A stretch of DNA of 42,576 nt from an uncultured Gammaproteobacteria bacterium. Its GTDB lineage: Bacteria > Patescibacteriota > Patescibacteriia > CAIXNZ01. The stretch is from the NCBI GenBank assembly GCA_964590345.1, contig CAZPVP010000005.1, forward strand, positions 1 to 42,576, read 5' to 3'. The notes under the pieces were generated by a model that ran no database searches, was not told the origin of the DNA, and was given only the letters and a program-made list of their open reading frames with translations. The translations under genes were made by a program, and so were the position numbers. Shown here one piece after another: positions 1-42,576 of the stretch (its first letter is position 1; the number at the start of each line of letters is the position of its first letter).

Positions 1-5
1 AAAAT

Positions 6-55
6 AGGACATTTTAACTTCCCTGAGAATAGGACATTTTAACTTCCCGTTGACA
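6..55. repeat. Left copy of the 50-bp window-terminal inverted repeat. It contains two direct 21-nt units (AATAGGACATTTTAACTTCCC) at a 25-bp period, and its inner boundary reads ...CCCGTTGACA.
   Basis: 6-55 is the exact reverse complement of 42527-42576 (50/50 by eye). Identity stops at 55/56. Confidence 0.95.
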
Positions 56-70
56 GAAACACGCAAAGTC

Positions 71-99
71 TTGACAATTTTTTTAGATTATGATAAGCT
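71..99 (+). promoter_or_regulatory. Sigma70-type promoter with extended -10
   Basis: TTGACA at 71-76, a 17-nt spacer, and TGaTAAGCT at 91-99. The same architecture recurs at other loci in the window. Confidence 0.6.
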
Positions 100-400
100 T
101 AAATATCGCCCACTGATTTTCTTGACTGTTTTATTCCCCCTGAAACAGTCTTGATCAGTGAGCGATTCTTGGAAACAGATAAAAAAATTTGTTTCCAAAA
201 ACCTGCAGGCACGATAAGCATGGGAGCGTACTTGAGGATTTAATCCGGCTCCGGCTAGATTATTCCTTAGATACGTTTTCTTGTCTGCAGATTTTTGGAG
301 AATAAAAAGTCAATAATCATCAACCTGGCAGAAGCAAAATGCTTTCAGCTGGGTCGGGCTGGAAGCATAATGCTATCTGCCTCCTTGAAAGGAGGTTGAA

Positions 401-541
401 ATGGCAAAACCCGTTTCAAATAGGTACGCAAAACGCGTGCGCAAGCTTAGGAGAAAGTCAAACTGGCTTTTGTCGATGAGTTTCATGAGCAGCAGATACA
501 ATGAAAGCAATGGACAGCACTCCCGAAAAGGAGACAAATAA
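401..541 (+). CDS. 46-codon basic micro-ORF (MAKPVSNRYAKRVRKLRRKSNW...)
   Basis: GGAGG lies 5 nt upstream of the ATG, but that SD is paired with CCTCC (380-384) in a hairpin. No recognisable family. Confidence 0.25.
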   Translation: MAKPVSNRYAKRVRKLRRKSNWLLSMSFMSSRYNESNGQHSRKGDK

Positions 542-555
542 CCTGTTCCGATTTA

Positions 556-588
556 GACCCACAAATTGTGGGCCTATTTTTTATTTTG
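556..588 (+). terminator. Rho-independent terminator
   Basis: CCCACA-AAT-TGTGGG stem followed by a T-rich run (ATTTTTTATTTT). Confidence 0.6.
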
Positions 589-725
589 AGGATATCTAAT
601 GAACAGAGATGCACGACCAGAGTTTCCCGTTGCCACAAAGTTGGACGAGCTAAGCAGTTCATCTATTCATGATATACCCGCTAGATGGGACATTTGGACA
701 TTTTTTACAAAGGAACTTCCAATAA

Positions 726-1076
726 TCAAAAAAGCACGCAATTGCGTGTTTTTAATTTTCTAAATATTTTTTTATTCTTATCTTCTCTTTGGTTATCGCC
801 TTTAAAATATAATTGAATAAACTCAATTAATCCCTTATCAATATAATGGGCATAAATTAAACGCAAGGTATTGCCTTTTAAATAACGGCAGAAAAAACGA
901 GCCTTAACAATTAACAATTGCTCATTTTTATGTAAAACAGCAAAATTTTTATTGGCACAAACATCAATAAAAGGGATATTTTTCTTAAAAGTATTCAAAT
1001 CATCAGCTAACGATTTATATTTCTTGGCTAATTTTTTACAACCTTTATCAAATTCCTTAATTGAGTTAAAGTTCAT
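726..1076 (-). CDS. RelE/ParE-superfamily-like toxin, partner of the upstream Panacea antitoxin
   Basis: 116 aa. Overlaps the upstream gene by 11 nt. Shows the toxin-like pattern KKLAKKYKSL...LRLIYAHY...IEFIQLYFKGD. Confidence 0.65.
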   Translation of the reverse strand: MNFNSIKEFDKGCKKLAKKYKSLADDLNTFKKNIPFIDVCANKNFAVLHKNEQLLIVKARFFCRYLKGNTLRLIYAHYIDKGLIEFIQLYFKGDNQREDKNKKIFRKLKTRNCVLF

Positions 1077-1845
1077 CTCGGTGTTCCTTCACCGAATACT
1101 TATCATCACGATAAAAAACACTTTCATAATCAATAACTTCGCCATTTTCATGACTTTTCCAGGGTATATCATTATGAGAGTATTCTGTTAATTCTTTAGC
1201 GCTTTTATTGGCCAAACGATTAATCACGTCGTCAATATGCGTAATTTCTCTTGCTGAAAGCCGGCTTAAATCAGGCTTTCTGCGTGGCAAGTATTTTTTT
1301 TGTTCATATTGAAAATATTTACTTTTAACTTTTTCCAATTCACCTTTATCAGTCATTTCATCAACAATTTCTTTTTCAAAAGCTACCGGAGTCGGGCCAT
1401 AATGATTTTTAATATATTTGGCGCCAATTAATTGCTCCTCGTATTTTTCATAATAATCAAAATCAATAAAATACAATAATTTATAAATGGCTGTTTCGCC
1501 AATATTAGGCAGTGCCCCGACTTTTTCTAAAATGTAAAGCAAAACCTCTTTAAATTTTTTTAAATTCTGCTGAGGCACGCTAATTCTGATTTCCGGTTTA
1601 GCTGATTTTTTAGGCTTTGACTTGCTTAATTTAACTGAAATTTTACTGGATTTCTCTGCTAAAAAATTTTCCAAAGTCAAACCAAAAATCTCGGCTAATT
1701 TTTTAGCCTGTTCAATGGTTAAGTCTGCCTTGCCATCTTCTATCTGCTTATAAGTGGGCCTGGACACATCAATCTTTTGGGCTAAATATTGCTGAGAGAG
1801 CTTGTTTTCTTGCCTTAACTTTTTTATAAAATTATTAAGCGCCAT
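1066..1845 (-). CDS. XRE-family HTH fused to a DUF4065/Panacea (SocA-like) antitoxin domain
   Basis: N-terminal part LSQQYLAQKIDVSRPTYKQIEDGK (HTH_3-like). C-terminal part KLLYFIDFDYYEKYEEQLIGAKYIKNHYGPTP, typical of DUF4065. Confidence 0.85.
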   Translation of the reverse strand: MALNNFIKKLRQENKLSQQYLAQKIDVSRPTYKQIEDGKADLTIEQAKKLAEIFGLTLENFLAEKSSKISVKLSKSKPKKSAKPEIRISVPQQNLKKFKEVLLYILEKVGALPNIGETAIYKLLYFIDFDYYEKYEEQLIGAKYIKNHYGPTPVAFEKEIVDEMTDKGELEKVKSKYFQYEQKKYLPRRKPDLSRLSAREITHIDDVINRLANKSAKELTEYSHNDIPWKSHENGEVIDYESVFYRDDKYSVKEHRDEL

Positions 1846-1868
1846 ACTGTAATTTTACCAATGTTAAA

Positions 1869-1908
1869 ATTTTTGTCAAGTTGATAAGTAAAATTATTTG
1901 ACAAAAAT
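1869..1908. promoter_or_regulatory. Palindromic operator-like element spanning divergent TTGACA boxes
   Basis: ATTTTTGTCAA ... TTGACAAAAAT: perfect 11-bp arms between the divergent TA operon and the 2016 gene. Confidence 0.5.
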
Positions 1909-2015
1909 ATTTATACCTGCTATGTTGATAAATAAGAAACATACTTCCCGCAATTCCCTAAGAATTGCTTAATTAACCGGACTGGAGCTTAGGGGGAAAG
2001 TCAAAAATTAAAAAT

Positions 2016-2222
2016 ATGTATTCATATTATGTAAACAAAAACGCTCAATCAAATGGCGATCATGAGGTTCACAGAGAAGGTTGTAATTATTTGCCTGAGC
2101 AGGATAACAGAGAATATCTTGGTGATTTTTCCTCCTGTCATGAGGCGGTTAAAGAAGCTCTAAGAAGAAATTATGATGCCAATGGCTGCATTCATTGTTC
2201 TAATGCGTGTCATACGCAATAA
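2016..2222 (+). CDS. Small Cys/His-rich protein of unknown function
   Basis: 68 aa with GDHEVHREGC...LGDFSSC...NGCIHC, followed by a terminator. Confidence 0.65.
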   Translation: MYSYYVNKNAQSNGDHEVHREGCNYLPEQDNREYLGDFSSCHEAVKEALRRNYDANGCIHCSNACHTQ

Positions 2223-2240
2223 ATTGTTCTTTACTACTAA

Positions 2241-2271
2241 AAACGCGCGACAATGAGTCGTGCGTTTTTTT
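2241..2271 (+). terminator. Rho-independent terminator
   Basis: ACGCGCGA-CAATGAG-TCGTGCGT stem followed by a T7 run. Confidence 0.7.
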
Positions 2272-2410
2272 CTTGGAAATTTATTTATAAATTTAATAAA
2301 ACTATGCCAAGTATATACTAACCGAGGGTACGGTTATTGAAAAAAGAGAGTTGTTGAGTTGTATGAGGAGCAAAATTACTCTTAAAAATAAGATTGTAAG
2401 TTTAGAATGA

Positions 2411-2662
2411 TTATAAGACAAATAATGTTTTAAATTTTTTTACTACAGCAGGTAGCAATATGCCCCACTTAGACAAAATCCCTATAGGTAATGACCAATC
2501 ATCAAAAGATTTTTTATCGTATACTTTTTTATATTCTAGAGACCATTTATAATCCTCTTTAAAAGTTAAAATTAAATGATTTAAAATCCGCTCCCCTAAA
2601 CTACAAGCCCCAGTTAATGCTGGATAATAAGAACCTATAATAAAGCTTCTTCTTATTTGCAA
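2411..2662 (-). CDS. Hypothetical 83-aa ORF, possibly a gene fragment
   Basis: ORF only. No recognisable motif and no clear RBS. Confidence 0.3.
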   Translation of the reverse strand: MQIRRSFIIGSYYPALTGACSLGERILNHLILTFKEDYKWSLEYKKVYDKKSFDDWSLPIGILSKWGILLPAVVKKFKTLFVL

Positions 2663-2702: not shown

Positions 2703-4208
2703 GTGCCTAATTCAATAAAATTTTGTAATTTTTGTTCAAAATTATCTTTTCCAAATTTAATTAAAATTGCACCAGATGGATTTTATGTTTTAGGTGCAAA
2801 TAGATATGATGGTTATGGTACTGTAACATTTTTTGAAAAACATCCATGGAGTAAACCAAGAACAAAAAAACACCTCAATCAATTACTTGATAGAGGCATT
2901 TCTTTTGTCCCTGGAAGGACGGCAGACCCTTCATCCGTCCGCCAAATCCTTTTAAAAAAGGCAGGCGTCGTGCCAAGCAGAGCCGTGATAGAACTTTCTG
3001 GCGTCAAGGACTCTACTCCTATTATATCACCCCCTGAAAAACTTGTCAAACCCGAACCACGATTTGTTAAAAAAGAAACCGCTAAAGATGTAAGTAATAA
3101 AAATATAGAAAAAAGATTAAATGAAATAGATGAAAAAAGAAGTGAAGTAAAATCAAGAATATTGCAAATAGCTACAGCTCCTAAAAAAACCATTGACGGG
3201 ACTGCTTTAACAAAAGAGCAAATATCTGATTTTTTTCAAAAACAAATAGCCAAAAGACCTGAGTTATTAGCTCCTGAAGATATGGGAAAATGGGAAGATC
3301 CAAATTTTTATGTGAGATTAGTTGGTAATGCTATACCTACGATAGCAGGAGCTATAGTAGCAGGTGCAATAACAGGGCCGATTGGTGGCGTTGCTTTTAC
3401 TGTTGGCGTAGAAGGCGGGTTTGCTTATCAAGAAGCAATTAATGCTGGTGCTTCGGCTGATCAAGCTAAAATTATTGCGACCAAAGTTGGTGCTATAAAT
3501 GGCTCATTGGAATATTTGCCTATTGGCAGAGTATTAAATAAAGTTAAGGGAGGCAGACAATTAAAAGGTAATATATTAAGACGTATTATTAAAGAAATAG
3601 TAGCACAAGGCGGAACAGAAGCGTCTACTGAAGCTATGCAAGAAATAGTTAATAATGCTGTTTTAATGGAAATAGATGAAAATAGAGAGTTATTTGATAA
3701 TGTATTAGAAGCAGCAGTAGGTGGTGGACTTGTTGGTATACTAATGGGTGGTGGTGGTCAGATTATAAGTAAGCAACAGCCTATTTCTCAACCTACACAA
3801 CCACAAATACAACCTATGCAAGAACCAACTATAATGTTAGATGAATTAGATTTTGCTGGTGTTGAACCTCAAAAAGCTAAAGAAATTTATGCTGATATTA
3901 AAGATTTGCCAATTAATGAACAAAGAAATAAAATTAAAGAATTAATTGATCAAGGTGTAATAGATAAAACTATATTTAAAAAAATGAAAGCGATTAGAGC
4001 AGGAGAAAAATTAGAGGGATTGGATTATGATATTAAAACATTACCGATAAAACAAAAAGCTCAATATATTTGGGATAAATTACAAGAATTTAATGGTGAT
4101 GAAAATGCTGAAAAAGAATATTTGAAAGAACTTAAAGAAAAGGGTATTTTGTCAAAAAATACGATGAAAGAATTAAAAAAGATTAGATTTGAAGAAAGAG
4201 GCTATTAA
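2703..4208 (+). CDS. Orphan 501-aa protein with a central Gly/Ala-rich hydrophobic region. Possibly of mobile-element or phage origin.
   Basis: Long ORF with coding-like composition. Contains AIPTIAGAIVAGAITGPIGGVAFTVGVEGG and GGTEASTEAMQEI segments. The start (GTG at 2703) is uncertain. Confidence 0.65.
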   Translation: MPNSIKFCNFCSKLSFPNLIKIAPDGFYVLGANRYDGYGTVTFFEKHPWSKPRTKKHLNQLLDRGISFVPGRTADPSSVRQILLKKAGVVPSRAVIELSGVKDSTPIISPPEKLVKPEPRFVKKETAKDVSNKNIEKRLNEIDEKRSEVKSRILQIATAPKKTIDGTALTKEQISDFFQKQIAKRPELLAPEDMGKWEDPNFYVRLVGNAIPTIAGAIVAGAITGPIGGVAFTVGVEGGFAYQEAINAGASADQAKIIATKVGAINGSLEYLPIGRVLNKVKGGRQLKGNILRRIIKEIVAQGGTEASTEAMQEIVNNAVLMEIDENRELFDNVLEAAVGGGLVGILMGGGGQIISKQQPISQPTQPQIQPMQEPTIMLDELDFAGVEPQKAKEIYADIKDLPINEQRNKIKELIDQGVIDKTIFKKMKAIRAGEKLEGLDYDIKTLPIKQKAQYIWDKLQEFNGDENAEKEYLKELKEKGILSKNTMKELKKIRFEERGY

Positions 4209-4447: not shown

Positions 4448-4513
4448 ATAATTGTAATTTAGGTAATTTAGCTATTTTCTGGTTATCCATTCGTCATAAT
4501 GATTAACCAGACC

Positions 4514-7432
4514 AATCTACAAAAGTAGAAATTTAATAGGTGTATTTGAGTTCCTTGTATTATCAGCCCACCCAATATCTACAAAAGTAGAAATTTAATA
4601 GGTGTATTTGAGCATGGTAATCGTCTTTCATGATAGTAGATCTACAAAAGTAGAAATTTAATAGGTGTATTTGAGAGTTTGCCATACAATGGACTATTGA
4701 ATCTACAAAAGTAGAAATTTAATAGGTGTATTTGAGTAAATCCTTATCAAATTTAATGCCATGATCTACAAAAGTAGAAATTTAATAGGTGTATTTGAGC
4801 TAACACAAAAATGATGAAAGAGACAATATCTACAAAAGTAGAAATTTAATAGGTGTATTTGAGTATTTCCATGACATTGAACCCCATGTATCTACAAAAG
4901 TAGAAATTTAATAGGTGTATTTGAGGAAAGAAATATGGTGGAAATACATGGCATCTACAAAAGTAGAAATTTAATAGGTGTATTTGAGTAACTGTTGCTA
5001 TAAAGGAATTATAATCTACAAAAGTAGAAATTTAATAGGTGTATTTGAGCATTAAAATGTGGATGAAAGAGACAATATCTACAAAAGTAGAAATTTAATA
5101 GGTGTATTTGAGTATGACTGATTTTTTAAACTGGATTTATCTACAAAAGTAGAAATTTAATAGGTGTATTTGAGAAATACCGCAGGATTTGAAAACCTTA
5201 GCATCTACAAAAGTAGAAATTTAATAGGTGTATTTGAGTAAGGCGGAAGTAATAGATGAGGTTAATCTACAAAAGTAGAAATTTAATAGGTGTATTTGAG
5301 TAGTAACTTGAACATCACCTGCCGCAAATCTACAAAAGTAGAAATTTAATAGGTGTATTTGAGAATCCCAGCCCCTAAAATCCCTGCCTAATCTACAAAA
5401 GTAGAAATTTAATAGGTGTATTTGAGGGGTAAGGTTAAGTAGTTATCTTTACATCTACAAAAGTAGAAATTTAATAGGTGTATTTGAGTAGTGTCCTTGC
5501 TATTTTTGTTGAGTTATCTACAAAAGTAGAAATTTAATAGGTGTATTTGAGATATAGTTGATATGCAGACATATATATCTACAAAAGTAGAAATTTAATA
5601 GGTGTATTTGAGAGCAAAACCAACAAAAGAAAATATAAATCTACAAAAGTAGAAATTTAATAGGTGTATTTGAGAAAAGTATCATACCCGCTACCGCAAT
5701 CATCTACAAAAGTAGAAATTTAATAGGTGTATTTGAGTCGTGCTGCTACTGAGGCTGCTAAAATCTACAAAAGTAGAAATTTAATAGGTGTATTTGAGGT
5801 TAGCTTTTAGAAGAATGAATGGTATCTACAAAAGTAGAAATTTAATAGGTGTATTTGAGCCATATTTTTAGCAGATTAATTCATTAATATCTACAAAAGT
5901 AGAAATTTAATAGGTGTATTTGAGGAACCACAAACATCTGTGAAGAATGACAATCTACAAAAGTAGAAATTTAATAGGTGTATTTGAGCTGTTAAACTAA
6001 CAGAGCCAGCGCCATATCTACAAAAGTAGAAATTTAATAGGTGTATTTGAGCACGATACATTATTTTGTATTAAGTTTATCTACAAAAGTAGAAATTTAA
6101 TAGGTGTATTTGAGTAAGGCAACGGCAAGAATTAGTAGGAATATCTACAAAAGTAGAAATTTAATAGGTGTATTTGAGGTCTCTGCCCCTAAAGTCTCTG
6201 CCCAATCTACAAAAGTAGAAATTTAATAGGTGTATTTGAGAAGAATTATATCAAAAAGTCATTAAATCTACAAAAGTAGAAATTTAATAGGTGTATTTGA
6301 GCAACAAAAACCACAAGGGGAGTTATCTATCTACAAAAGTAGAAATTTAATAGGTGTATTTGAGCTTACCCCAAGATAGTTGAGCAAGAATCTACAAAAG
6401 TAGAAATTTAATAGGTGTATTTGAGTCAGAAGTTGTCGCTGACAAATTAAATCTACAAAAGTAGAAATTTAATAGGTGTATTTGAGAAATACACATACAC
6501 CTGAGGGTCGTATCTACAAAAGTAGAAATTTAATAGGTGTATTTGAGCGGTAATCACGCGTTAGACAACGCTATATCTACAAAAGTAGAAATTTAATAGG
6601 TGTATTTGAGACATGAAACACACACTAAGATGGTTCCATCTACAAAAGTAGAAATTTAATAGGTGTATTTGAGTTGAAAGTTTATCTAAACATCAAATAT
6701 CTACAAAAGTAGAAATTTAATAGGTGTATTTGAGACAAAAAGAGATTAAAAGGAAACAATAATCTACAAAAGTAGAAATTTAATAGGTGTATTTGAGTTC
6801 AAATCAAAAAGTAAGCTTAGATCAGGCACGATCTACAAAAGTAGAAATTTAATAGGTGTATTTGAGCATGTGGGGACAATGGGTTAGTCTTTATCTACAA
6901 AAGTAGAAATTTAATAGGTGTATTTGAGTAATAAATAAGCTGAAGTATTGGATACATCTACAAAAGTAGAAATTTAATAGGTGTATTTGAGGGTTCGCTG
7001 CTAAATTGAATATAACATCTACAAAAGTAGAAATTTAATAGGTGTATTTGAGCTTTTTCACAGGTAGACCCCAAAATAATATCTACAAAAGTAGAAATTT
7101 AATAGGTGTATTTGAGTCGTGATATGAACGGAGTGGATTTAGAATCTACAAAAGTAGAAATTTAATAGGTGTATTTGAGTTATATGGAGCAAACAAACGG
7201 CTTTTAATCTACAAAAGTAGAAATTTAATAGGTGTATTTGAGAAGATGCTGATGTTAATGCTCAGAAAAATCTACAAAAGTAGAAATTTAATAGGTGTAT
7301 TTGAGTTGTTTTAGTGTGTTTTGCATACTTGTGATCTACAAAAGTAGAAATTTAATAGGTGTATTTGAGTAACACTGTCAGCGTCTTGAACCAATTATCT
7401 ACAAAAGTAGAAATTTAATAGGTGTATTTGAG
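4514..7432 (-). CRISPR. Type V-A CRISPR array: 47 identical 36-bp repeats and 46 spacers of about 25-33 bp
   Basis: The plus-strand repeat is ATCTACAAAAGTAGAAATTTAATAGGTGTATTTGAG. On the minus strand it reads CTCAAATACACCTATTAAATTTCTACTTTTGTAGAT, which ends in the Cas12a crRNA handle (stem TCTAC/GTAGA). Confidence 0.98.
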
Positions 7433-7598
7433 TCTTAAAATAGCTAATTTAAGCGAAAAAGATACAAATAATGCACATGTGCAATTACGACTTTTTCGCT
7501 TAAAATAGACAAATTTAAAATATAAGGACTTAGGTTTTGTATTTCTTAAAATATACCCACTGAAATTTCCACTTTTATTATCTTGTAAAAGTGCCAAA
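7433..7598 (-). promoter_or_regulatory. CRISPR leader between cas2 and the first repeat
   Basis: AT-rich 166 bp. It carries a 13-bp inverted repeat (7449-7461/7491-7503) enclosing the palindrome TGCACATGTGCA (7472-7483), and a direct repeat CTTAAAATAG at 7434 and 7499. Confidence 0.6.
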
Positions 7599-7890: not shown

Positions 7891-8859
7891 TTAACGAATT
7901 ATAAAATTTTTTATTTCCCCTTCTTCATTTAAAATAAAATAATAATGCGCTCTAATATAATTATAAATATTCTCTTTCTGCCCTAAAACCTCCTTCATGA
8001 AAAATTTAATATATTTAGAACTTTTTTTATATGATAAATAATACTGTCCCTTTCTATGACCAAAATCTTTTTCATCAAAAATGTTTAATTTATGAAGCTT
8101 AACAAGCGCTTTATCAATTACACACCTAAAAGGTTCCATCATATCACAAGAGAAAGATTTTCTTTGAAAATATAATTGATGGTATATTCCCTTGTAAGTA
8201 TCAAATCCATATACTCTCAATAATGAATCTACAAAATTAAAAAGATAACTATAACCCATATCTAAAAGAATATTATTTTCGTCATTTTTCCCACGAGGTA
8301 TTCTTCTATACCAACTAATTCTAGAAAAATAAGCACGAAAACATTCTTTACTCATACTTCCCTCTAATCCTCTTAGAGATTCCTTATTTTTAGCACCTCT
8401 AATTTTCTTCGTCATAATGCTTTTATAAACCATTCTTTTTTTACCGCCGATTTCTTGAATATTTGCTCCACGTAATAAAGATAATTGATTAATTAATTTA
8501 TTTTCAACAATTTTTTTTGCTATAAAAAGGCATTTATCCTCAGACAAATTATATTGTTTCTGCCTTAAAAGGTAATTACCTTCAGCATATGATTGAATAC
8601 TAGCATAACACTCCAAATTATTTCTAAGCAAAAAAATTGAAGCTCCGGTTCTAACTAATTTTTGGATTAATTTACTGGTAATAGTAATGTCACCAATAAT
8701 AAAAACAATTAATAATCTATGTATCGGGACTTTGCTATAATTCTTATTGTTTTTCAAAACTAAAATATTTTCGTTGTTAAGCTTAATGTTGCATTCTTTA
8801 AAAGAAGAAGCATCTAAGCAAAAAATTTGTTTTTCTTTAAAATCATTGGGTTGGATCAT
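7891..8859 (-). CDS. cas1: CRISPR-associated integrase Cas1
   Basis: 322 aa with Cas1-like motifs NILLDMGYSYLFN, GIYHQ and DMMEPFRCVID. Synteny is cas4-cas1-cas2. Confidence 0.9.
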   Translation of the reverse strand: MIQPNDFKEKQIFCLDASSFKECNIKLNNENILVLKNNKNYSKVPIHRLLIVFIIGDITITSKLIQKLVRTGASIFLLRNNLECYASIQSYAEGNYLLRQKQYNLSEDKCLFIAKKIVENKLINQLSLLRGANIQEIGGKKRMVYKSIMTKKIRGAKNKESLRGLEGSMSKECFRAYFSRISWYRRIPRGKNDENNILLDMGYSYLFNFVDSLLRVYGFDTYKGIYHQLYFQRKSFSCDMMEPFRCVIDKALVKLHKLNIFDEKDFGHRKGQYYLSYKKSSKYIKFFMKEVLGQKENIYNYIRAHYYFILNEEGEIKNFIIR

Positions 8860-8868
8860 AATTTTTAA

Positions 8869-9408
8869 TTAACATAATTCACCATAAATGCACTGTTGGC
8901 ATTTTTTATTATTTAATTTTTTTTTACTGGTTAATAAGTTAAATCTGCGAATATTTTTTAATGAATTATTAAATTTTTTAATAACCTCGCAATTAAAAAC
9001 CACGGAGTATTTCTTATTATCAACTAAAGAATATAATGTTGCTTTTTTTACCTCATATCCCATTTCTTCAAGGCATACCTTTTGAGCATAAAGTTGAAAT
9101 AAATAACCATCATATATTTTTTTAATTTTTCTTTTTCTCTCAATTAACTCTTTCTTTGCGAAGTCATAAATATCAACTTTACCGATCAAACCATATTTAT
9201 CAGAAAAAATTTCTATTCCCTGCACAACATTCTTTTTTGTTGAATATTGCCGATTGTCAATATTTTTATGCGCAATATTACCAGCAATTTGATTTTCTCC
9301 ATTATAATGCCACTTATCAAAATCTTCATAAACACTATGAAAATAAAGCGAACGTGGACAAAAAATAAAATCATTAAGTTTTGAAATTTGAATATAATCG
9401 TAATACAT
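8869..9408 (-). CDS. cas4: CRISPR-associated exonuclease Cas4
   Basis: 179 aa. N-terminal Cys (FIFCPRSLYF), C-terminal CQQCIYGELC, and nuclease core DIYD...ELIERKRK. Confidence 0.85.
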   Translation of the reverse strand: MYYDYIQISKLNDFIFCPRSLYFHSVYEDFDKWHYNGENQIAGNIAHKNIDNRQYSTKKNVVQGIEIFSDKYGLIGKVDIYDFAKKELIERKRKIKKIYDGYLFQLYAQKVCLEEMGYEVKKATLYSLVDNKKYSVVFNCEVIKKFNNSLKNIRRFNLLTSKKKLNNKKCQQCIYGELC

Positions 9409-9431
9409 AATAATCTTAATTTAACATAAAA

Positions 9432-9460
9432 ATATATCATTAAACTTATGACTTTGTCAA
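9432..9460 (-). promoter_or_regulatory. Candidate promoter of the cas4-cas1-cas2 operon
   Basis: On the minus strand: TTGACA, then N15, then TGaTATATT. Confidence 0.45.
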
Positions 9461-9488
9461 TTCCGTTTCAGTAAATTTTATCTAATAG

Positions 9489-9530
9489 AAAACTCCCCCT
9501 TTAAATCTTGAAAATCTTCGGGGGAGTTTT
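9489..9530 (-). terminator. Hairpin downstream of cas12a, a possible attenuating terminator
   Basis: AAAACTCCCCC ... GGGGGAGTTTT: an 11-bp perfect stem with a 20-nt loop. Confidence 0.5.
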
Positions 9531-9554
9531 ATTATAAAGACAATAACTATTTAT

Positions 9555-12500
9555 TTAAGATACAAATTGATCCCATTCATCCTGAGTAATCAACAAATCA
9601 CCATTTTCCATTTTGCTTAAATCACTGAATTTTTTCTTAAATTTGGAAATTTTATCTAAAACAAGGATTCCCTTGCGAGCAATATTATAAGCTCCATTAG
9701 CATCGCCATTAAATACAAAAGGTTCCCTGCCGGAATATTTACTTTTTAAATTCTTTAAATTACTTTCAGAATGGAAATGGCATGAAGGGCATTCAATAAA
9801 ATCGTAGCATTTTTCTTTTATTTCATTTCCACTGTTGTCTTTCTCTACTATAGCATTACGAAGCTGTAAAATAAGACGGATATTATGAATAATCGGTTTA
9901 TAAAAAGAGCCATTCCCCAAATTTTTCCCCTGAATTTGCTTAATTATATTTTCTTTGTTAATTTCTATATTATTTTTTTTGAATATATTTTTTAATTCCT
10001 CATTGGGATATATCCATTTTGTTTCCCCACCGCGGTTATCTTTTCTTCTTAAATATTGCAAACGAGTAACATCCGAATAAAAAACAAATTCGTCCCTTTT
10101 TTCTTTATTGTCAAAAAGAGTAAATCCTGATTTGCTTTTACTGGTCTTTTTCTTTTCTTCTATCACATCTTTTCTTCTGTAAGTAAATCTGAACCTGTCT
10201 TTTTCTTTTTCATAAATGATATCAAATTTTTCAATAAATTGTTTATTCTTTGATCTAATATCTATTTTTGTAGGGATGTTCTTACGAAACCCGCAAACAG
10301 GACATATTGCCGAGGTATAGCTGGCAGGAACATAAAAAATAAAGCCGCATTGTCTGTAAATATCCTTAAAATTATTAATTTTTGGAGTAAGCTGAAAAGC
10401 TTTTGTGGCACTACCTACTTGTTCAAAATCCCGATCCTTAAAAACCAAATAATTAAGCTTTTTTGCCAACGCTAATTCTAAATTTTGATAAACTTGTTTT
10501 TCTATTGCAAATCTGCCCCGTTTAAAGCCCGCGTTCAAATCTTCAAAAATTATAATAGCATTATATTCAATCATTAAATTACAAATTTTCTTTACCAATT
10601 GAGAAATATAGCCTTTTTTCATTTCTTTTATTTTACCAATGATCTGCCAATTTTTACGTGCCTCGGCCCTCTTTTCTTCTAATTCAGATAATTTTTTATG
10701 ATAATCAGTGCCATTGATTTCATTAAATGATCTAGTCTCCAATATATTCTTTCTTTGATCAATAACCGAATAATACGCCAAATGTTTTTCACCTCTATCA
10801 ATACCGATAATATTAACATCTTTATTATTAGCCAAATACTCCCTAACACTTACACTAAAAGAATCGGCTTTGCCTTTGTACTTATTATTATCTTTTTCAA
10901 CTTCATCTCTGGCAAAGTTCAAAGTTAAAGGACAATGAAAAAAAACTTTATTTTCTGTATATCTTTTTTTATTGATAACCTCTACTGAAGTTTTTCTTTT
11001 TTTATCTACCTCCTTATCAAGAGAAGCTTTCCTAAAAAATACTTCTGCCTGACCATTTAATTTTATAATCGGATTATTTTGATTTCTTTCACTGAAAATC
11101 TCTTCCCAAAAAAAAGTATGTAAATTCTTTTTCCCTTCAGCCTTTGAATTAAAATCTTTATTGTGTATTTCAAATAAAAATAATTCCCCGCTATTATTCT
11201 TTTCTTTTATATATTTTTCAGAAATATTTTCAAACCAAATTTTCCAAGTATTTTTGGATAAATCATTATAAAATTCTCCAATATTTTTTTTATATTGTTT
11301 TGTTGGCTTTATATGATTAAAACTAAACAAACTCCAGCTAGGATGCTTAGGAATACATTCCTTAAAAAAATCAATAATTTTATGCATATTTTTTATTGAG
11401 AAAGCAGGGGAATCAATTTTAAATGATCCTGAGCGATAAATATCCAACAGCTCTTTATTTGGACGATATTCCTTAATACCTTTATTCGAAAATATTCCTT
11501 TAGGAAAATCTCTTTTGGGGTCAGCCATTAATTTATAAACCATTTTTTTATAGAATCTCTTATCATTTAAATTACCTTTTTGATATTTATCTAAAAAAAT
11601 ATCATTATGATTTTTTTTCATAATACCCAAATAATATTTACCTTTCTTTTTTAAAATTACACCTAAATTATTTTGTTCTTTATTTTTATCCCATCCATCG
11701 AGGAGTGTACCACATTCAAAATTTAACTTAATTTTATCTTCGCTATAAGGCTTTTGGGTAAGATAATTTCTAAAGACATTATAATACTGCCAGGTATGTA
11801 CATTTTGATAATAATCATTAAAACGATCATAAAATAAGCTATCTTCATCTATACTATCGGGATTCCATAATCTTTCTTTTCCTTTTTCCAAAGAAAAATA
11901 TTTTATCATTTGATAGATAGATAATGAACTTTCGCAATAATCACGAATAATCTCTTTTTGTCTCAAAATATTTTTATAAAGTTTATCTTTTTTAATTATC
12001 GCTTCAATATCTTGTAATACTTCTTCATATCCTTTCTTTTCTTTATTGCCTTTAAAATTTTCGTTAAACTCGCTCTGCCAAATTTTAAGAAAAATTATAT
12101 AATTATCAGACTCTTTACCGCTAAAAATATCCTTATATTTATCACGAAAAATATCATTTCTATCCTTAATTTCAATATTTTGTAATTTTTCTTTTAACTC
12201 AGCTATTGAAACAAAATCAGGCAATTTCTTTTGGCCTTTTTCTATGAATAAACTTCTGATAAAATTCCAATCAGCAAACCACTTATTGGATATTTGATTA
12301 ATAAACCTTCCCGCAACATATATATTGGAAATATTAAAATTGCCGCGATTTGCTAATTGATCTTCAATAAATTCATTAAATAAATCAAATGCTTTGGGAT
12401 TTTGCAATTTATTTTCTTTTATAAAATCATTCATAACTTTAAAGACCTCATTATCTTGAGTAATTTCTATAAAACCGGATTGTTCTATGTCTCTGGCTGT

Positions 12501-13382
12501 CCTCTCTCCCATAATCTGCTTAAAAAGTATTTTAAAAAAAGGCAAATCATTTTTATTTTTTGTTTTTTGACGCTTAAAATTGACTTTTTTGTTTATTTCG
12601 GCAATTAAATCATTATATTGATCTATTTGCCCCTGACTAAGACAATTATTAAAATATTTTAAATTAAAAATATCTTTTTGCACCTTATTGAATATATCAT
12701 CATGCTTCCCTTTATATTTATTTTCAAATTGTTTTTGATTTTCTAAAAATTTCGGCAGATTCTCATTAACTATTCTTGTCGGAATTGCGGTTGAAGTACC
12801 GTCATCTTTATAAAAATTCTTTCTGGTTTGATGAAAGCCGTTAAAATAAGTACTAAATTTATTAAAACTTTCAAAAATACTTTTATCATCAATTACCGCT
12901 TCCGGATATTTATATTTTAAAAAATCAAAAATTTCTTTTTTAAAAAATAAATCCAACTTTTTAAGTTTTCTTACGTTAGTTTTTAGTTCCTCCTTTCTTA
13001 TTTTTTTTAAATATTTATTTTTCCATTCTTCTAATATTTTTTCAAAATTTATTAAAATATTTTTTCTGATTTTTTTAGCTTCGTCTTCTATTTTTTTCTT
13101 ATTTGAATTACTTTTTTCATTTTTATATTTAAAATAAGCTTGCTCATAATCCTTTAACAATTTACTACTAATTTCCGTCTTATGCAGTGCATCATCAATA
13201 AATTCCCTATGTAATTTATCAAACCAATTTTTAACTTCTTTATAATTTTTAGACAAGATTTCGTCTTTTTTAAAAACTTTATTATCTTCAAGCATTTGGG
13301 GAGTATTATATTTTGGTATAAGTTCAAAGCGCAAAGTTTTAGAAAGTTCATAAAGGTTAGTAAACTTGTTTAAATTTCGCAT
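9555..13382 (-). CDS. cas12a: Cas12a (Cpf1) type V-A effector nuclease, 1275 aa
   Basis: N-terminus FTNLYELSKTLRFELIP. RuvC-I IGIDRGEKHLAY, RuvC-II IIIFEDLN, RuvC-III NGDANGAYNIARKG, and YTSAICPVCGF. Adjacent cas4/cas1/cas2 and a Cas12a-type repeat support the call. Confidence 0.95.
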   Translation of the reverse strand: MRNLNKFTNLYELSKTLRFELIPKYNTPQMLEDNKVFKKDEILSKNYKEVKNWFDKLHREFIDDALHKTEISSKLLKDYEQAYFKYKNEKSNSNKKKIEDEAKKIRKNILINFEKILEEWKNKYLKKIRKEELKTNVRKLKKLDLFFKKEIFDFLKYKYPEAVIDDKSIFESFNKFSTYFNGFHQTRKNFYKDDGTSTAIPTRIVNENLPKFLENQKQFENKYKGKHDDIFNKVQKDIFNLKYFNNCLSQGQIDQYNDLIAEINKKVNFKRQKTKNKNDLPFFKILFKQIMGERTARDIEQSGFIEITQDNEVFKVMNDFIKENKLQNPKAFDLFNEFIEDQLANRGNFNISNIYVAGRFINQISNKWFADWNFIRSLFIEKGQKKLPDFVSIAELKEKLQNIEIKDRNDIFRDKYKDIFSGKESDNYIIFLKIWQSEFNENFKGNKEKKGYEEVLQDIEAIIKKDKLYKNILRQKEIIRDYCESSLSIYQMIKYFSLEKGKERLWNPDSIDEDSLFYDRFNDYYQNVHTWQYYNVFRNYLTQKPYSEDKIKLNFECGTLLDGWDKNKEQNNLGVILKKKGKYYLGIMKKNHNDIFLDKYQKGNLNDKRFYKKMVYKLMADPKRDFPKGIFSNKGIKEYRPNKELLDIYRSGSFKIDSPAFSIKNMHKIIDFFKECIPKHPSWSLFSFNHIKPTKQYKKNIGEFYNDLSKNTWKIWFENISEKYIKEKNNSGELFLFEIHNKDFNSKAEGKKNLHTFFWEEIFSERNQNNPIIKLNGQAEVFFRKASLDKEVDKKRKTSVEVINKKRYTENKVFFHCPLTLNFARDEVEKDNNKYKGKADSFSVSVREYLANNKDVNIIGIDRGEKHLAYYSVIDQRKNILETRSFNEINGTDYHKKLSELEEKRAEARKNWQIIGKIKEMKKGYISQLVKKICNLMIEYNAIIIFEDLNAGFKRGRFAIEKQVYQNLELALAKKLNYLVFKDRDFEQVGSATKAFQLTPKINNFKDIYRQCGFIFYVPASYTSAICPVCGFRKNIPTKIDIRSKNKQFIEKFDIIYEKEKDRFRFTYRRKDVIEEKKKTSKSKSGFTLFDNKEKRDEFVFYSDVTRLQYLRRKDNRGGETKWIYPNEELKNIFKKNNIEINKENIIKQIQGKNLGNGSFYKPIIHNIRLILQLRNAIVEKDNSGNEIKEKCYDFIECPSCHFHSESNLKNLKSKYSGREPFVFNGDANGAYNIARKGILVLDKISKFKKKFSDLSKMENGDLLITQDEWDQFVS

Positions 13383-13702: not shown

Positions 13703-15601
13703 TTATTCCTCGGAACTTTCTGGCTGTTCATTATTTTCTGGTGGTTTTTCAGTCCCGCCTTCTTCACCTTCTGAAGCTTCCTCTGGACCGACTTCATAAA
13801 TTGCACTCCAGGCTACATAATGTGAACGCCAGATTTCTTTTTCTTTTTCCTGACCTGGCCGGGTGATGTAACGGTAAAAATGTGCGTCAGCTCCGCTTCT
13901 GGCATGTTCCATTAATTTTTTTTTGCCTGGTTCTAAATCTGAATTTTCAATCATTCTTGGCGCACCTGGCCCGCGCCAGTTATAAACTTCGGGTTCAGTA
14001 ATTTCAACCTGCCGGCCGTCACTTTTGCCCCAAAAAGTAAAAGTTAATTTTGTATCCTCTATTTCTGTCTGGATTAAAATATAATTGCCAGTATCATTAA
14101 TAAACCTGACATCAGGATGAGGACTATAAATAGCCGCGTCCATGCCAATTGGCTTATAATACGAAACAATATAGGAATGGGGTTTTCTTTCAATTATTGG
14201 CAAACCGCTATACAAAGCTGCCCGAAAAGTTGTTGTGGCTATCTGGCACAACCCTCCCCCATATTCAGGAATAGTCCGATCACCTTTAATTACATATTCT
14301 GGATAATAACCTGTTGAAGCATTAACTGGACCGATTCTTTCAGCCAAAGAAAACCCTTCGCCTGGTTCAATTAACATGCCATGCAAATGATTAGCTGCAT
14401 TAGTAATATTTCTAATTCTATTAATCCGGCTACCAGCAAAATCAGATTCACCAACCCCAATTATTTCTGTAATACCAAAACCATTAACCTCGCCTGTCTT
14501 AACTTGGGGCTCCGATTCTTTAACAATTAAATCAATTTCATTATTTTTTCTGGCAAAAAATTGGTCATTTATCTTTGAAAAATTGCTTTCTATATCTAAT
14601 TTTAAGCCAAACTTATGGGGCTTAAATTCTGTTACTTTGCCATCTTCAAAGGTAAATCTTGCGTCTTGAGCTGGCAAATTAATTTCTTGCGCTAATTCTT
14701 TTAATTTTTTCTTTAATAATTGCGGCTTAAAAGTCAACAAAATTTGCTTATTTGCTTTTTTAAAAGCCAGCCAATTTTTAAATTCATCTCTTTCAATCTC
14801 CCAATTATCATCTTTATACTTTAAAATAATTTTTTCTTGTTTTAAAATATCCTTAATCAAAAGCTTATTTGCTTCGGCTTCTCTTTTGGTAACAGAAGGC
14901 AAAGAAGGTTTTGTTTTCAAATTAATTGTTTGTAAGCTCAAAAAATTAAGATTATTTTTCAAATCATTAATTGCTTGCTCATAATCAATAATGAATCCCC
15001 TTTTTTCTGGTTCAATTTTGAACTCGGTTTCATTAACAAAAACTATTTCAGCATTTTTAGCTGGATTCTCAAAAATTTCAAATTTATTTTGCAAAATTTC
15101 TTTTAAATACTCGTCATGCAACGTATAGATTAATGGAATTTCCTGGCGATATAAAAGGGCTTTTAATTGCTTATTTAGATTTACTAAAAAATTATTTTGT
15201 CTACCATACCAAAAAGCCTGATCAACCATCTTGCTCTTTTCAAAAATTAAAATTTGATAAGCTAAATCAGGATCAGCTGGCGATAAAGTAGTCGTTTCTA
15301 CTTTTAAATTATTGTTTTTATATTTAAAATTCAACCCTCTTAATTTTAAATTATCAACGAACATATTTAATTTATCCATAGCTTCTAAAGGAGTTAAACT
15401 ACCAATTTCTATGCCATCAATGTAAATGCCAGGATAAATTTTATTATAATAATAAAATTGATAAGCAAAAATCGGCATGGCAAAAAATAAACCAATCAAG
15501 AAAAAAACAAAAAAAATAGTTAATAAAACCATTAACTTTTTTTCATTTGCTTTTTTCTTTTTATTTTTAAAAAGTAAATCAAGTCTAAGTTTCATTCGCA
15601 T
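13703..15601 (-). CDS. VanW-family protein with an N-terminal membrane anchor
   Basis: GGGLCQIATTTFRAALYSGLPIIERKPHSY is the VanW core. The N-terminal TM segment is LMVLLTIFFVFFLIGLFF. Confidence 0.85.
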   Translation of the reverse strand: MRMKLRLDLLFKNKKKKANEKKLMVLLTIFFVFFLIGLFFAMPIFAYQFYYYNKIYPGIYIDGIEIGSLTPLEAMDKLNMFVDNLKLRGLNFKYKNNNLKVETTTLSPADPDLAYQILIFEKSKMVDQAFWYGRQNNFLVNLNKQLKALLYRQEIPLIYTLHDEYLKEILQNKFEIFENPAKNAEIVFVNETEFKIEPEKRGFIIDYEQAINDLKNNLNFLSLQTINLKTKPSLPSVTKREAEANKLLIKDILKQEKIILKYKDDNWEIERDEFKNWLAFKKANKQILLTFKPQLLKKKLKELAQEINLPAQDARFTFEDGKVTEFKPHKFGLKLDIESNFSKINDQFFARKNNEIDLIVKESEPQVKTGEVNGFGITEIIGVGESDFAGSRINRIRNITNAANHLHGMLIEPGEGFSLAERIGPVNASTGYYPEYVIKGDRTIPEYGGGLCQIATTTFRAALYSGLPIIERKPHSYIVSYYKPIGMDAAIYSPHPDVRFINDTGNYILIQTEIEDTKLTFTFWGKSDGRQVEITEPEVYNWRGPGAPRMIENSDLEPGKKKLMEHARSGADAHFYRYITRPGQEKEKEIWRSHYVAWSAIYEVGPEEASEGEEGGTEKPPENNEQPESSEE

Positions 15602-20353: not shown

Positions 20354-20426
20354 GGGTGCATAGCTCAGTTGGTAGAGCAGCTGCCTCTTAAGCAGCGGGT
20401 CGGGGGTTCGAATCCTCCTGCACCCA
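20354..20426 (+). tRNA. tRNA-Lys (anticodon CTT), starting immediately after the CCA of tRNA-Arg
   Basis: Acceptor GGGTGCA/TGCACCC, anticodon stem GCTGC/GCAGC, loop CTCTTAA, T-loop TTCGAAT. Confidence 0.9.
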
Positions 20427-20428
20427 CG

Positions 20429-20731: not shown

Positions 20732-20813
20732 TCAGGTAGAGCAGCCCCAAAGGTGCCCCTTTGGGGCTGCCTCTTAAGCAGCGGGTCGGGGGTTCGAATC
20801 CTCCTGCACCCAC
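20732..20813 (+). pseudogene. Partial tRNA-Lys copy: D-loop to 3' end, interrupted by a 22-nt palindrome and lacking the 5' acceptor strand
   Basis: TCAGGTAGAGCAG, then CCCCAAAGGTGCCCCTTTGGGG (20745-20766), then 47 nt identical to the tRNA-Lys 3' part. Confidence 0.8.
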
Positions 20814-42399: not shown

Positions 42400-42526
42400 A
42401 ACTTCTTAAGTTAATAAATTAACAAAAGATACTAAAATGACCTTTAAAAACTATATGAATGCTTATAACGTTATAATACCATATTTTATGATATTAAATT
42501 AAAGTTGTCAATATATTAGCAAACAA

Positions 42527-42576
42527 TGTCAACGGGAAGTTAAAATGTCCTATTCTCAGGGAAGTTAAAATGTCCT
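42527..42576. repeat. Right copy of the 50-bp terminal inverted repeat (TGTCAACGGGAAGTTAAAATGTCCTATTCTCAGGGAAGTTAAAATGTCCT)
   Basis: Exact reverse complement of 6-55. It runs to the last base of the window. Confidence 0.95.

Follow-up and report, generated by a model that had tools for sequence, protein, structure and literature searches.

A compact structured RNA gene kept across one class of candidate phyla radiation bacteria, at a locus carrying a 409-bp insertion and a transposable-element end

The window analyzed here is a 42,576-nt stretch of contig CAZPVP010000005.1 (GenBank assembly GCA_964590345.1), read on the forward strand. At its left end, positions 56-725 had been singled out from the sequence alone as a G+C-richer, hairpin-dense transcription unit free of open reading frames (ORFs), thought to be either a novel structured RNA of about 480 nt or a riboswitch-like leader of a small protein (the original prediction). 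The 670-bp stretch is a composite. It combines an RNA gene at ~100-303 on the + strand, a 409-bp insertion at 311-719 and, at 1-55, the end of a transposable element. The sequence at ~100-303(+) is a member of an RNA family retained, as a single-copy gene, across one class of the phylum. The whole explanation, namely the composite together with an RNA that would act in trans and with transcription that would read through into the insertion, is considered probable.

The G+C content of 101-700 is 0.40-0.445 in 200-nt windows. It had been said to stand out from its surroundings, which holds against the next ~2 kb (0.25-0.35 at 701-2800); however, 2801-3100 and 3301-3500 reach similar values, so the composition of 56-725 is not unique in the window. 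ORFs of 60 amino acids or more are indeed absent from both strands of 56-725, the longest being 59 amino acids at 483-662(-). The region 100-595 folds with z = -9.30, and none of 100 shuffled sequences folds as well.

Two covariance models were built, R1 of the full RNA and R2 of the class core, the latter from 36 diverse copies. R1 gives the window 206 bits and R2 gives it 96.8 bits; by construction, the window sequence is among those from which both were built. Alignment A1 holds 14 sequences of the family and alignment A3 holds 36 sequences of the class. The features of the RNA gene are:

71-99, + strand: RNA-gene promoter; -35 element TTGACA(A) at 71-77 and extended -10 element TGATAAGCT at 91-99, invariant or conserved in 14/14 family sequences
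105-303 (predicted ends), + strand: structured non-coding RNA; 74-83% identity in 13/13 family genomes
105-166, + strand: hairpin P1; apical loop TTCCCCCTGAAA at 134-145 identical in 14/14, 2/7 outer-stem pairs compensatory
169-198, + strand: hairpin P2; 10 pairs, 4 of them changed on both sides
199-293, + strand: P3, the class-wide core rod; 23/27 pairs compensatory in A3
203-211/282-290, + strand: P3 closing stem, the arms of which contain two CTGCAG sites
212-221, + strand: P3 invariant one-sided loop CGATAAGCAT, opposite the single U281
222-228/274-280, + strand: P3 stem above the loop
247-256, + strand: P3 apex GGC-TCCG-GCT, with a UNCG-type loop

The RNA comprises a family-specific 5' domain, formed by P1 and P2, and the class-wide rod hairpin P3. 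Folding of 105-303 on the + strand yielded -79.8 kcal/mol (z = -9.24, with 0/200 shuffles as good), compared with -64.4 kcal/mol (z = -5.42) for the - strand of the same region. The lower energy of the + strand, together with the invariant G.U pairs described below, points to the + strand as the functional one. The hairpins first noticed at 105-166, 169-198 and 203-290 are all part of the minimum-free-energy fold. The CTGCAG sequences at 203-208 and 285-290 are present as well, but they are the two pairing arms of a single helix rather than separate palindromes. The P1 loop, UUCCCCCUGAAA (134-145), is C-rich and invariant within the family.

The part common to all members consists of a closing stem of ~20 bp, the one-sided loop, and a distal arm of ~35 bp with a UNCG-type cap. 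The class-wide consensus of the loop is CGA(C/U)AAGCAU, with 10 nt on the 5' strand facing a single U in 36/36 sequences. Its flanks are formed by an invariant A-U pair followed by G-C, G.U and G.U pairs. Past the loop follow a variable, co-varying stem, a distal AGGA/UCCU helix and a YGGC-UNCG-GCU apex. The apex loop itself varies (UCCG, UUCG, UUUUA, UACG and others) and is ~35 nt away from the invariant loop. Predicted full-length RNAs span 126-335 nt, the minimal forms of 126-150 nt being a single rod with a short 5' tail. A pairing of the loop sequence GACAAG with CUUGUC of the 3' strand, possible in the window, was considered and rejected because the partner column co-varies with a closing-stem column instead.

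The fold is backed by covariation at both levels of relatedness. The RNAalifold consensus of A1 folds into three hairpins, and compensatory changes were seen at 11 of their 44 pairs; in A3 changes on both sides were found at 23 of 27 pairs. Standard pairs are formed in 92.2% of the A3 cells versus 70.9% in shuffled alignments, and 0/500 shuffles reach the observed value. When the partners were slid by 1-3 columns, pairing fell to 41-50%.

The family is widely and narrowly distributed at once: within its class nearly everywhere, and outside it nowhere in the phylum sample. DNA searches of the 13 other genomes of the family returned one copy each, with 74-83% identity, and these matches cover window positions ~64-311 alone; nothing in these relatives matched 312-725. 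R1 matches 17/17 genomes of the order and 104/151 sampled genomes of the class, and R2 matches 134/151 of the latter, including 124 of 136 with a completeness of at least 90%. Each matched genome has a single R2 copy, apart from three with two. Tandem pairs of the rod RNA occur in some lineages (L054 1381-1474/1581-1675; L079 1299-1387/1511-1604; L134 269-367/468-562). In the phylum sample of 151 genomes, R2 matches this genome and 6/6 others of the same class, and 0/144 genomes of other classes. The RNA is thus kept in about nine out of ten sampled genomes of the class and yet is absent from the RNA-family catalogue; the covariance model is ready for annotating these genomes.

A scan of species-representative genomes with the exact pattern identified at least 119 stretches. 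The informative titles among them name Falkowbacteria, Uhrbacteria, Magasanikbacteria, Komeilibacteria, Buchananbacteria, Kerfeldbacteria, Parcubacteria and "Patescibacteria group", a set which we take to be GTDB class ABY1. Pattern matches labelled Treponema, Bacteroidales and Eisenbacteria were discarded, as were three of four matches in IMG/VR, since they gave no R2 match or only 19.6 bits. The remaining IMG/VR match, on a 37.9-kb contig (L258 2509-2601), is a rod RNA that scores 52 bits with R2 and has an intact invariant loop. It lies among Rad52-like, Cpn60-type chaperonin and ParB-N/DNA-methylase genes, a phage-like context, which hints that a phage may carry its own copy of the rod RNA.

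The RNA gene has its own promoter, of the sigma-70 type. Both elements named in the original prediction, TTGACA at 71-76 and TGATAAGCT at 91-99, are present; a simple promoter scan left out the pair because the -10 element matches 3/6 consensus bases. In the 14 aligned family sequences TTGACAA is invariant and a TG-N-TAnnnT block is conserved, and the pattern TTGA[CT][AT]-N15-19-TAnnnT was found upstream of 31 of the 39 RNA copies examined. At the other end of the gene, an intrinsic terminator lies directly 3' of the RNA in 7/7 family loci with examined 3' flanks; in each of these relatives the RNA body is followed by an unrelated stem-loop and T-run. A U-run directly after the outward-extended stem is seen in many lineages. 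The central expectation of the original prediction, a novel structured RNA driven by this promoter, is therefore borne out strongly by conservation and covariation.

Upstream of the RNA, on the same strand, clpP was found in 16/42 loci, and downstream a convergent VanW-like gene (VanW/PG_binding_4) in 21/42. The convergent downstream gene in most loci and the terminator or U-run after the RNA indicate an independent gene rather than a leader. An aptamer upstream of a same-strand regulated gene, the arrangement of riboswitches and cis-leaders, is not what the conserved RNA displays. This genome keeps the order clpP-RNA-VanW in interrupted form, with clpP on contig C17 across the transposable element and the VanW-like gene at 13703-15601(-) of the window.

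The sequence that follows the RNA in this genome differs from that of all its close relatives. Its features are:

311-719, + strand: insertion of 409 bp, in this genome only and absent from 13/13 family relatives
311-319, either strand: left 9-bp direct repeat CAATAATCA, flanking the insertion
321-398, + strand: leader element with twin hairpins and a Shine-Dalgarno (SD) hairpin; 87% DNA identity over 78 nt to C40:483-560(-)
401-541, + strand: 46-codon ORF; 24% identity to a 62-amino-acid ORF of C40 and its relatives, with 4 invariant columns kept
556-588, + strand: intrinsic-terminator-like hairpin (stem 558-572 and T-run), belonging to the insertion
599-763, + strand: 54-codon frame; 5' part a remnant of the second gene of a cassette, the rest crossing the end of the insertion
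720-728, either strand: right 9-bp direct repeat CAATAATCA, flanking the insertion
730-753, either strand: bidirectional terminator AAAAGCACGCAATTGCGTGTTTTT, from the scan; aligns to the terminator directly after the RNA in relatives L040 and L046

Within the first 1200 nt, CAATAATCA occurs at 311 and 720 alone. When 311-719 was deleted, the alignment score to L040 rose from 37 to 76; the deleted window reads AAAAAAGCACGCAATTGCGTGTTTTT where L040 reads AAAAAATACGCATATTGCGTATTTTT, and the alignment runs through the 3' end of the RNA into the terminator. Judged from this alignment, the site at 730-753, a second terminator which the scan found and the original prediction did not use, appears to be the original terminator of the RNA gene, and it would also end the gene at 726-1076(-).

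The individual elements that had been described downstream of the RNA are real, and they belong to the insertion: the twin hairpins, the hairpin in which CCTCC (380-384) pairs with GGAGG (391-395) and sequesters the SD sequence, the ATG-initiated ORF of 46 codons at 401-541, and the terminator at 556-588, which the scan recovered as the stem 558-572 and its T-run. The insertion is a decayed copy or fragment of a small-protein cassette, placed between the RNA and its terminator. In a tblastx comparison it is collinear with contig C40:560-105(-) of the same genome, through the 87%-identical DNA segment and two weaker segments at the protein level. On C40 the same leader follows a near-consensus promoter of its own and precedes the 62-amino-acid ORF. 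Among 1.84 billion representative proteins this ORF has 7 relatives of 52-97 amino acids, all of which align from residue 1. The ORF at 401-541 is devoid of the first 15 residues, including the N-terminal LTDEEIRELL block, and does not belong with the full-length members; these missing residues and the 24% identity mark it as a truncated, diverged copy of a rare small-protein family. The 599-763 frame is 44% identical over 39 residues to C40 ORF 3-257(-) by tblastx, and no relative of this second cassette gene turned up among proteins of 46-149 amino acids.

At two metagenomic loci the small-protein family occurs in tandem arrays, with leaders in which an upstream CUCCUC or CCUCC could base-pair with the SD sequence; sequestration of the SD is thus a recurring trait of the small-protein family and not of the conserved RNA. 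Like the 5' leaders of small accessory genes that sequester an SD, the insertion at 321-400 has an upstream CCUCC pairing with the GGAGG, 5 nt before the start codon. It differs from them in having no demonstrable ligand-binding core, thermosensor signature or covariation, as judged from two close copies and two distant loci. No promoter belonging to the insertion is present in the window, so read-through from the RNA promoter would be the only visible source of transcription for the 46-codon ORF. Transcription would probably run from the RNA into the insertion and stop at 556-588. The locus also holds a lesson for annotation: a compact RNA gene can be mistaken for a long transcription unit when an insertion and a transposable element lie against it. 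On C40, just upstream of the fuller cassette copy, lies a gene for a 437-amino-acid TnpB-type protein (1106-2419(-), locus L131; HTH_OrfB_IS605, OrfB_IS605 and Cas12f1-like TNB domains).

Comparison with known RNA families identified no counterpart. As the original prediction of novelty implied, no Rfam 15 family matches the RNA: at gathering thresholds the window yields only two transfer RNAs (tRNAs), distant from the RNA; at E values up to 10 the best match on 1-900 is a microRNA model with 25.9 bits against a threshold of 60; and in 20 diverse loci with homologs of the RNA, no family matches at its position. Full-text literature searches, which do not cover supplements, retrieved no description of it. 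RNase P RNA (C4:27357-27872) and transfer-messenger RNA (C39:2409-2776) are encoded elsewhere in this genome, and the RNA is thus neither of them. Several conserved bacterial RNA classes, such as raiA, OLE, ROOL and GOLLD, emerged from comparative genomics as orphans. The present RNA resembles these in being defined by covariation and phylogenetic distribution before function, in being lineage-restricted and not cis-regulatory, and in being occasionally phage-borne. It differs in matching none of them in Rfam 15, in its restriction to one class of candidate phyla radiation bacteria and, with respect to OLE, ROOL and GOLLD, in its much smaller size.

A role in trans is suggested by the conserved promoter and fold, the invariant single-stranded loop, the single copy, the class-wide distribution and the lack of a cis-linked gene. 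On such a reading the RNA would be abundant, constitutively made and of housekeeping type, and neither a cis-regulator nor a long leader. The invariant one-sided loop and its flanking G.U pairs would form a specific docking site, for which a protein is the most likely ligand, and the RNA would act as the scaffold of a ribonucleoprotein, much as 4.5S, 6S or Y RNAs do. By this analogy, a trans-acting, constitutively made housekeeping-type RNA whose invariant loop docks a protein is put forward tentatively, as a serious possibility that stops short of being probable. A more specific version, in which the rod is the RNA subunit of a new housekeeping ribonucleoprotein that arose in this class and has a core function in transcription, translation or protein targeting, is rather unlikely. 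If true, it would mean that a function was taken over or newly provided, and that it was valuable enough for a phage to carry a copy. Candidate phyla radiation genomes are tiny, so that almost everything conserved in them is likely needed, and their RNA biology is nearly untouched; this RNA, single-copy and driven by its own promoter, with an invariant loop and very strong covariation, offers a testable entry into the core biology of these bacteria.

Several points weigh against this picture. The docking of a protein is argued by analogy with other RNAs. The A3 sequences were gathered with a model of the same family, so their pair counts lean somewhat toward structure, though the slid-partner control argues that the covariation signal is real. 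In the 17/151 class genomes that lack an R2 match, the RNA may have been lost or have diverged, or the assembly may be incomplete. For the RNA transcript, its start, its 3' end and the read-through are all predictions. The 9-bp repeat that flanks the insertion could be an attachment-site core, a target duplication or a micro-homology, and no mobilizing enzyme is linked to it.

As to the extent of the transcript, the stretch 105-588 could be imagined as one evolved unit of ~480 nt, either a large structured RNA or a riboswitch-like leader of the 46-codon ORF. A physical read-through transcript is likely in this genome, given that no terminator lies between 303 and 556, and the insertion folds better than its shuffles (z = -4.85). 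The pairing of CCTCC with the GGAGG SD sequence, matched by CUCCUC/CCUCC in the related small-protein leaders, also has the look of a regulatory leader, and in this respect the riboswitch-like proposal is partly right, for the insertion alone; an aptamer-like conserved core was not found, and nothing points to ligand sensing. Set against a single unit are the absence of 311-719 from 13/13 family relatives, in which a terminator directly follows the RNA, the 9-bp direct repeat that flanks the segment, the restoration of the alignment upon its removal, and the truncated state of the ORF, of which C40 carries a fuller paralog under a separate promoter. A unit of that length is therefore very unlikely, and the estimate of ~480 nt is to be replaced by ~200 nt (~100-303). 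That the region might instead encode no functional RNA, being a decayed protein-coding gene or a product of chance folding, has been raised as well. Decayed coding sequence does exist in the insertion at 311-719; over 100-303, by contrast, the substitutions across 36 sequences keep base pairs rather than a reading frame, the sequence is conserved in single copy class-wide and so is its promoter, which leaves this explanation next to no probability for the RNA itself.

As to function, three other identities were weighed against the trans-acting, protein-docking RNA. In the 6S RNAs described so far, both strands contribute unpaired bases to bubbles that are poorly conserved in sequence, and these RNAs bind the RNA polymerase holoenzyme as mimics of an open promoter. 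The present RNA shares with RF00013 the sigma-70 transcript of an abundant type, a layout in which a closing stem leads through a single-stranded region to a terminal stem, and the size range (minimal forms of 126-150 nt). It is also single-copy with a strong sigma-70-type promoter, and one copy lies in the phage-like contig. The role would have no known occupant, as the Rfam 6S model matches neither this genome nor any of 151 class genomes; this model finds only 5/14 control genomes, and its silence therefore says little either way. The bubble, however, is one-sided (10 nt versus 1 nt) in 36/36 aligned sequences and invariant in sequence, and the 6S model gave no match on the window at E values up to 10. 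A 6S-like regulator is disfavoured and is judged unlikely. The signal recognition particle (SRP) RNA of the small, 4.5S type (RF00169) provides the other obvious shape: the present RNA is likewise a single-copy, promoter-driven rod of ~110-125 nt, whose asymmetric internal loop is its most conserved part and is bracketed by conserved pairs. Moreover, canonical SRP RNA (RF00169/RF01854) was matched neither in this genome nor in the family (0/14), the class sample (0/151) or the phylum sample (0/151). SRP RNA is characterized by a conserved apical tetraloop of the GNAR type, next to which lie symmetric and asymmetric loops. The present RNA has a variable UNCG-type apex instead, a conserved loop of different sequence ~35 nt from the apex, and no match to an SRP model even at E values up to 10. 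Its would-be partners are missing too: the Ffh M domain (PF02978) was found in 0/151 class and 0/151 phylum-sample genomes (14/14 controls were positive), and in this genome NCBIfam models detected neither ffh nor ftsY (TIGR00959 at 17 bits only, TIGR00064 none) and no ORF combines the SRP-GTPase motif DTAGR with a P-loop. One published study (PMC8080830) describes SRP subunits as absent in many candidate phyla radiation bacteria. Despite the 4.5S-like shape, the SRP identity was rejected, and even a highly diverged SRP RNA is extremely improbable. Lastly, the RNA could be a base-pairing regulator, whose invariant loop (with CAU, the complement of a start codon) or C-rich P1 loop pairs with translation-initiation regions of mRNAs. 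Two invariant stretches are indeed predicted to be single-stranded. A perfect 12-nt complement of the loop exists at C2:~273 of this genome, in a promoter-driven, ORF-poor transcript, and 4/13 relatives have an extra perfect 12-mer complement, where ~1.2 are estimated by chance over 14 genomes. On the other hand, no complement is conserved, 9/13 relatives have none beyond the antisense strand of the gene itself, the 9-10-mer complements in this genome are scattered and of chance-like number, and an internal loop within a long rod would be an unusual seed. Such a regulator is thought unlikely, with a modest share of probability left to it.

The loop complements of 9-12 nt are scattered in this genome, and two 11-mer sites were inspected. 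At one, the frame differs from that of the surrounding ORF; the other is near the end of a promoter-driven, ORF-poor transcript. Rfam yielded nothing at either site. On C2, a unit at ~230-570(-) (L255) has a near-consensus promoter, an ORF-poor body of ~300 nt and a terminator, with a loop complement near its 3' end.

The left boundary of the locus is formed by the transposable element:

1-55, + strand: A-end of the element; two tandem 18-nt sites AGGACATTTTAACTTCCC, then GTTGACA; the contig breaks here
56-70, either strand: 15-bp target-site duplication GAAACACGCAAAGTC; its reverse complement abuts the B-end on C17, with clpP beyond

The 50-nt perfect inverted repeat that had been noticed between the two window ends is genuine. 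The terminal repeat at 1-55 belongs to a multicopy transposable element, of which it forms one end, and lies outside the RNA gene; the same 50-55 nt occur at the ends of contigs C1, C13, C38, C41, C43 and C46 and at both ends of C5. Each end of the element bears a tandem pair of 18-nt sites and terminates in ...ACA. Six pairs of A-end and B-end flanks share a 15-bp duplication, among them C5-left/C17 and C5-right/C24, and window positions 1-70 thus have the makeup of a transposable element with its target-site duplication. In 9/9 A-end flanks, 15-16 bp are followed directly by TTGACA; the element therefore appears to integrate immediately 5' of promoter -35 boxes. Here it adjoins the upstream side of the RNA promoter, with clpP beyond it. 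The interior of the element, with its transposase, is absent from the assembly.

The element ends (window 1-70 and 42507-42576) recur on C1, C7, C10, C13, C17, C21, C24, C25 and C31, and on C37, C38, C41, C43, C46, C52 and C67; the element breaks the assembly. On C7 (20880-23010; L251 381-2511), a solo A-end is followed by a TTGACA promoter and lies ~800 nt upstream of the gene for a 427-amino-acid IS110-family transposase (Transposase_20).

The RNA gene had been placed next to a mobile-element end and a toxin-antitoxin module. Both do adjoin it, and the RNA gene itself is chromosomal, syntenic and outside the element. The ~13 kb between the RNA and the VanW-like gene hold a SocA/Panacea-type antitoxin module, phage-like ORFs, an array of clustered regularly interspaced short palindromic repeats (CRISPR) and cas12a-cas4-cas1. 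At 726-1845(-), a 259-amino-acid protein with HTH_3 and SocA/Panacea antitoxin domains overlaps a 116-amino-acid ORF that matches no family, and the pair is likely a toxin-antitoxin module. A 68-amino-acid ORF at 2016-2222(+) matches the phage family phrog_4298 (E = 1e-24), and a 501-amino-acid ORF at 2703-4208(+) has weak matches to giant phage virion proteins, which suggests mobile DNA beside the CRISPR array. The CRISPR locus, of type V-A, occupies 4509-7496 and 7891-13382(-), with 48 repeats at a spacing of 61-65 nt, and encodes cas1, cas4 and a 1275-amino-acid Cas12a with the Cpf1 REC1, REC2, PI, RuvC and NUC domains. Farther along the window, the 3' 48 nt of tRNA-Lys(CTT) (20380-20427) are repeated exactly 386 nt downstream (20766-20813), in what looks like the attachment-site scar of an integrated element.

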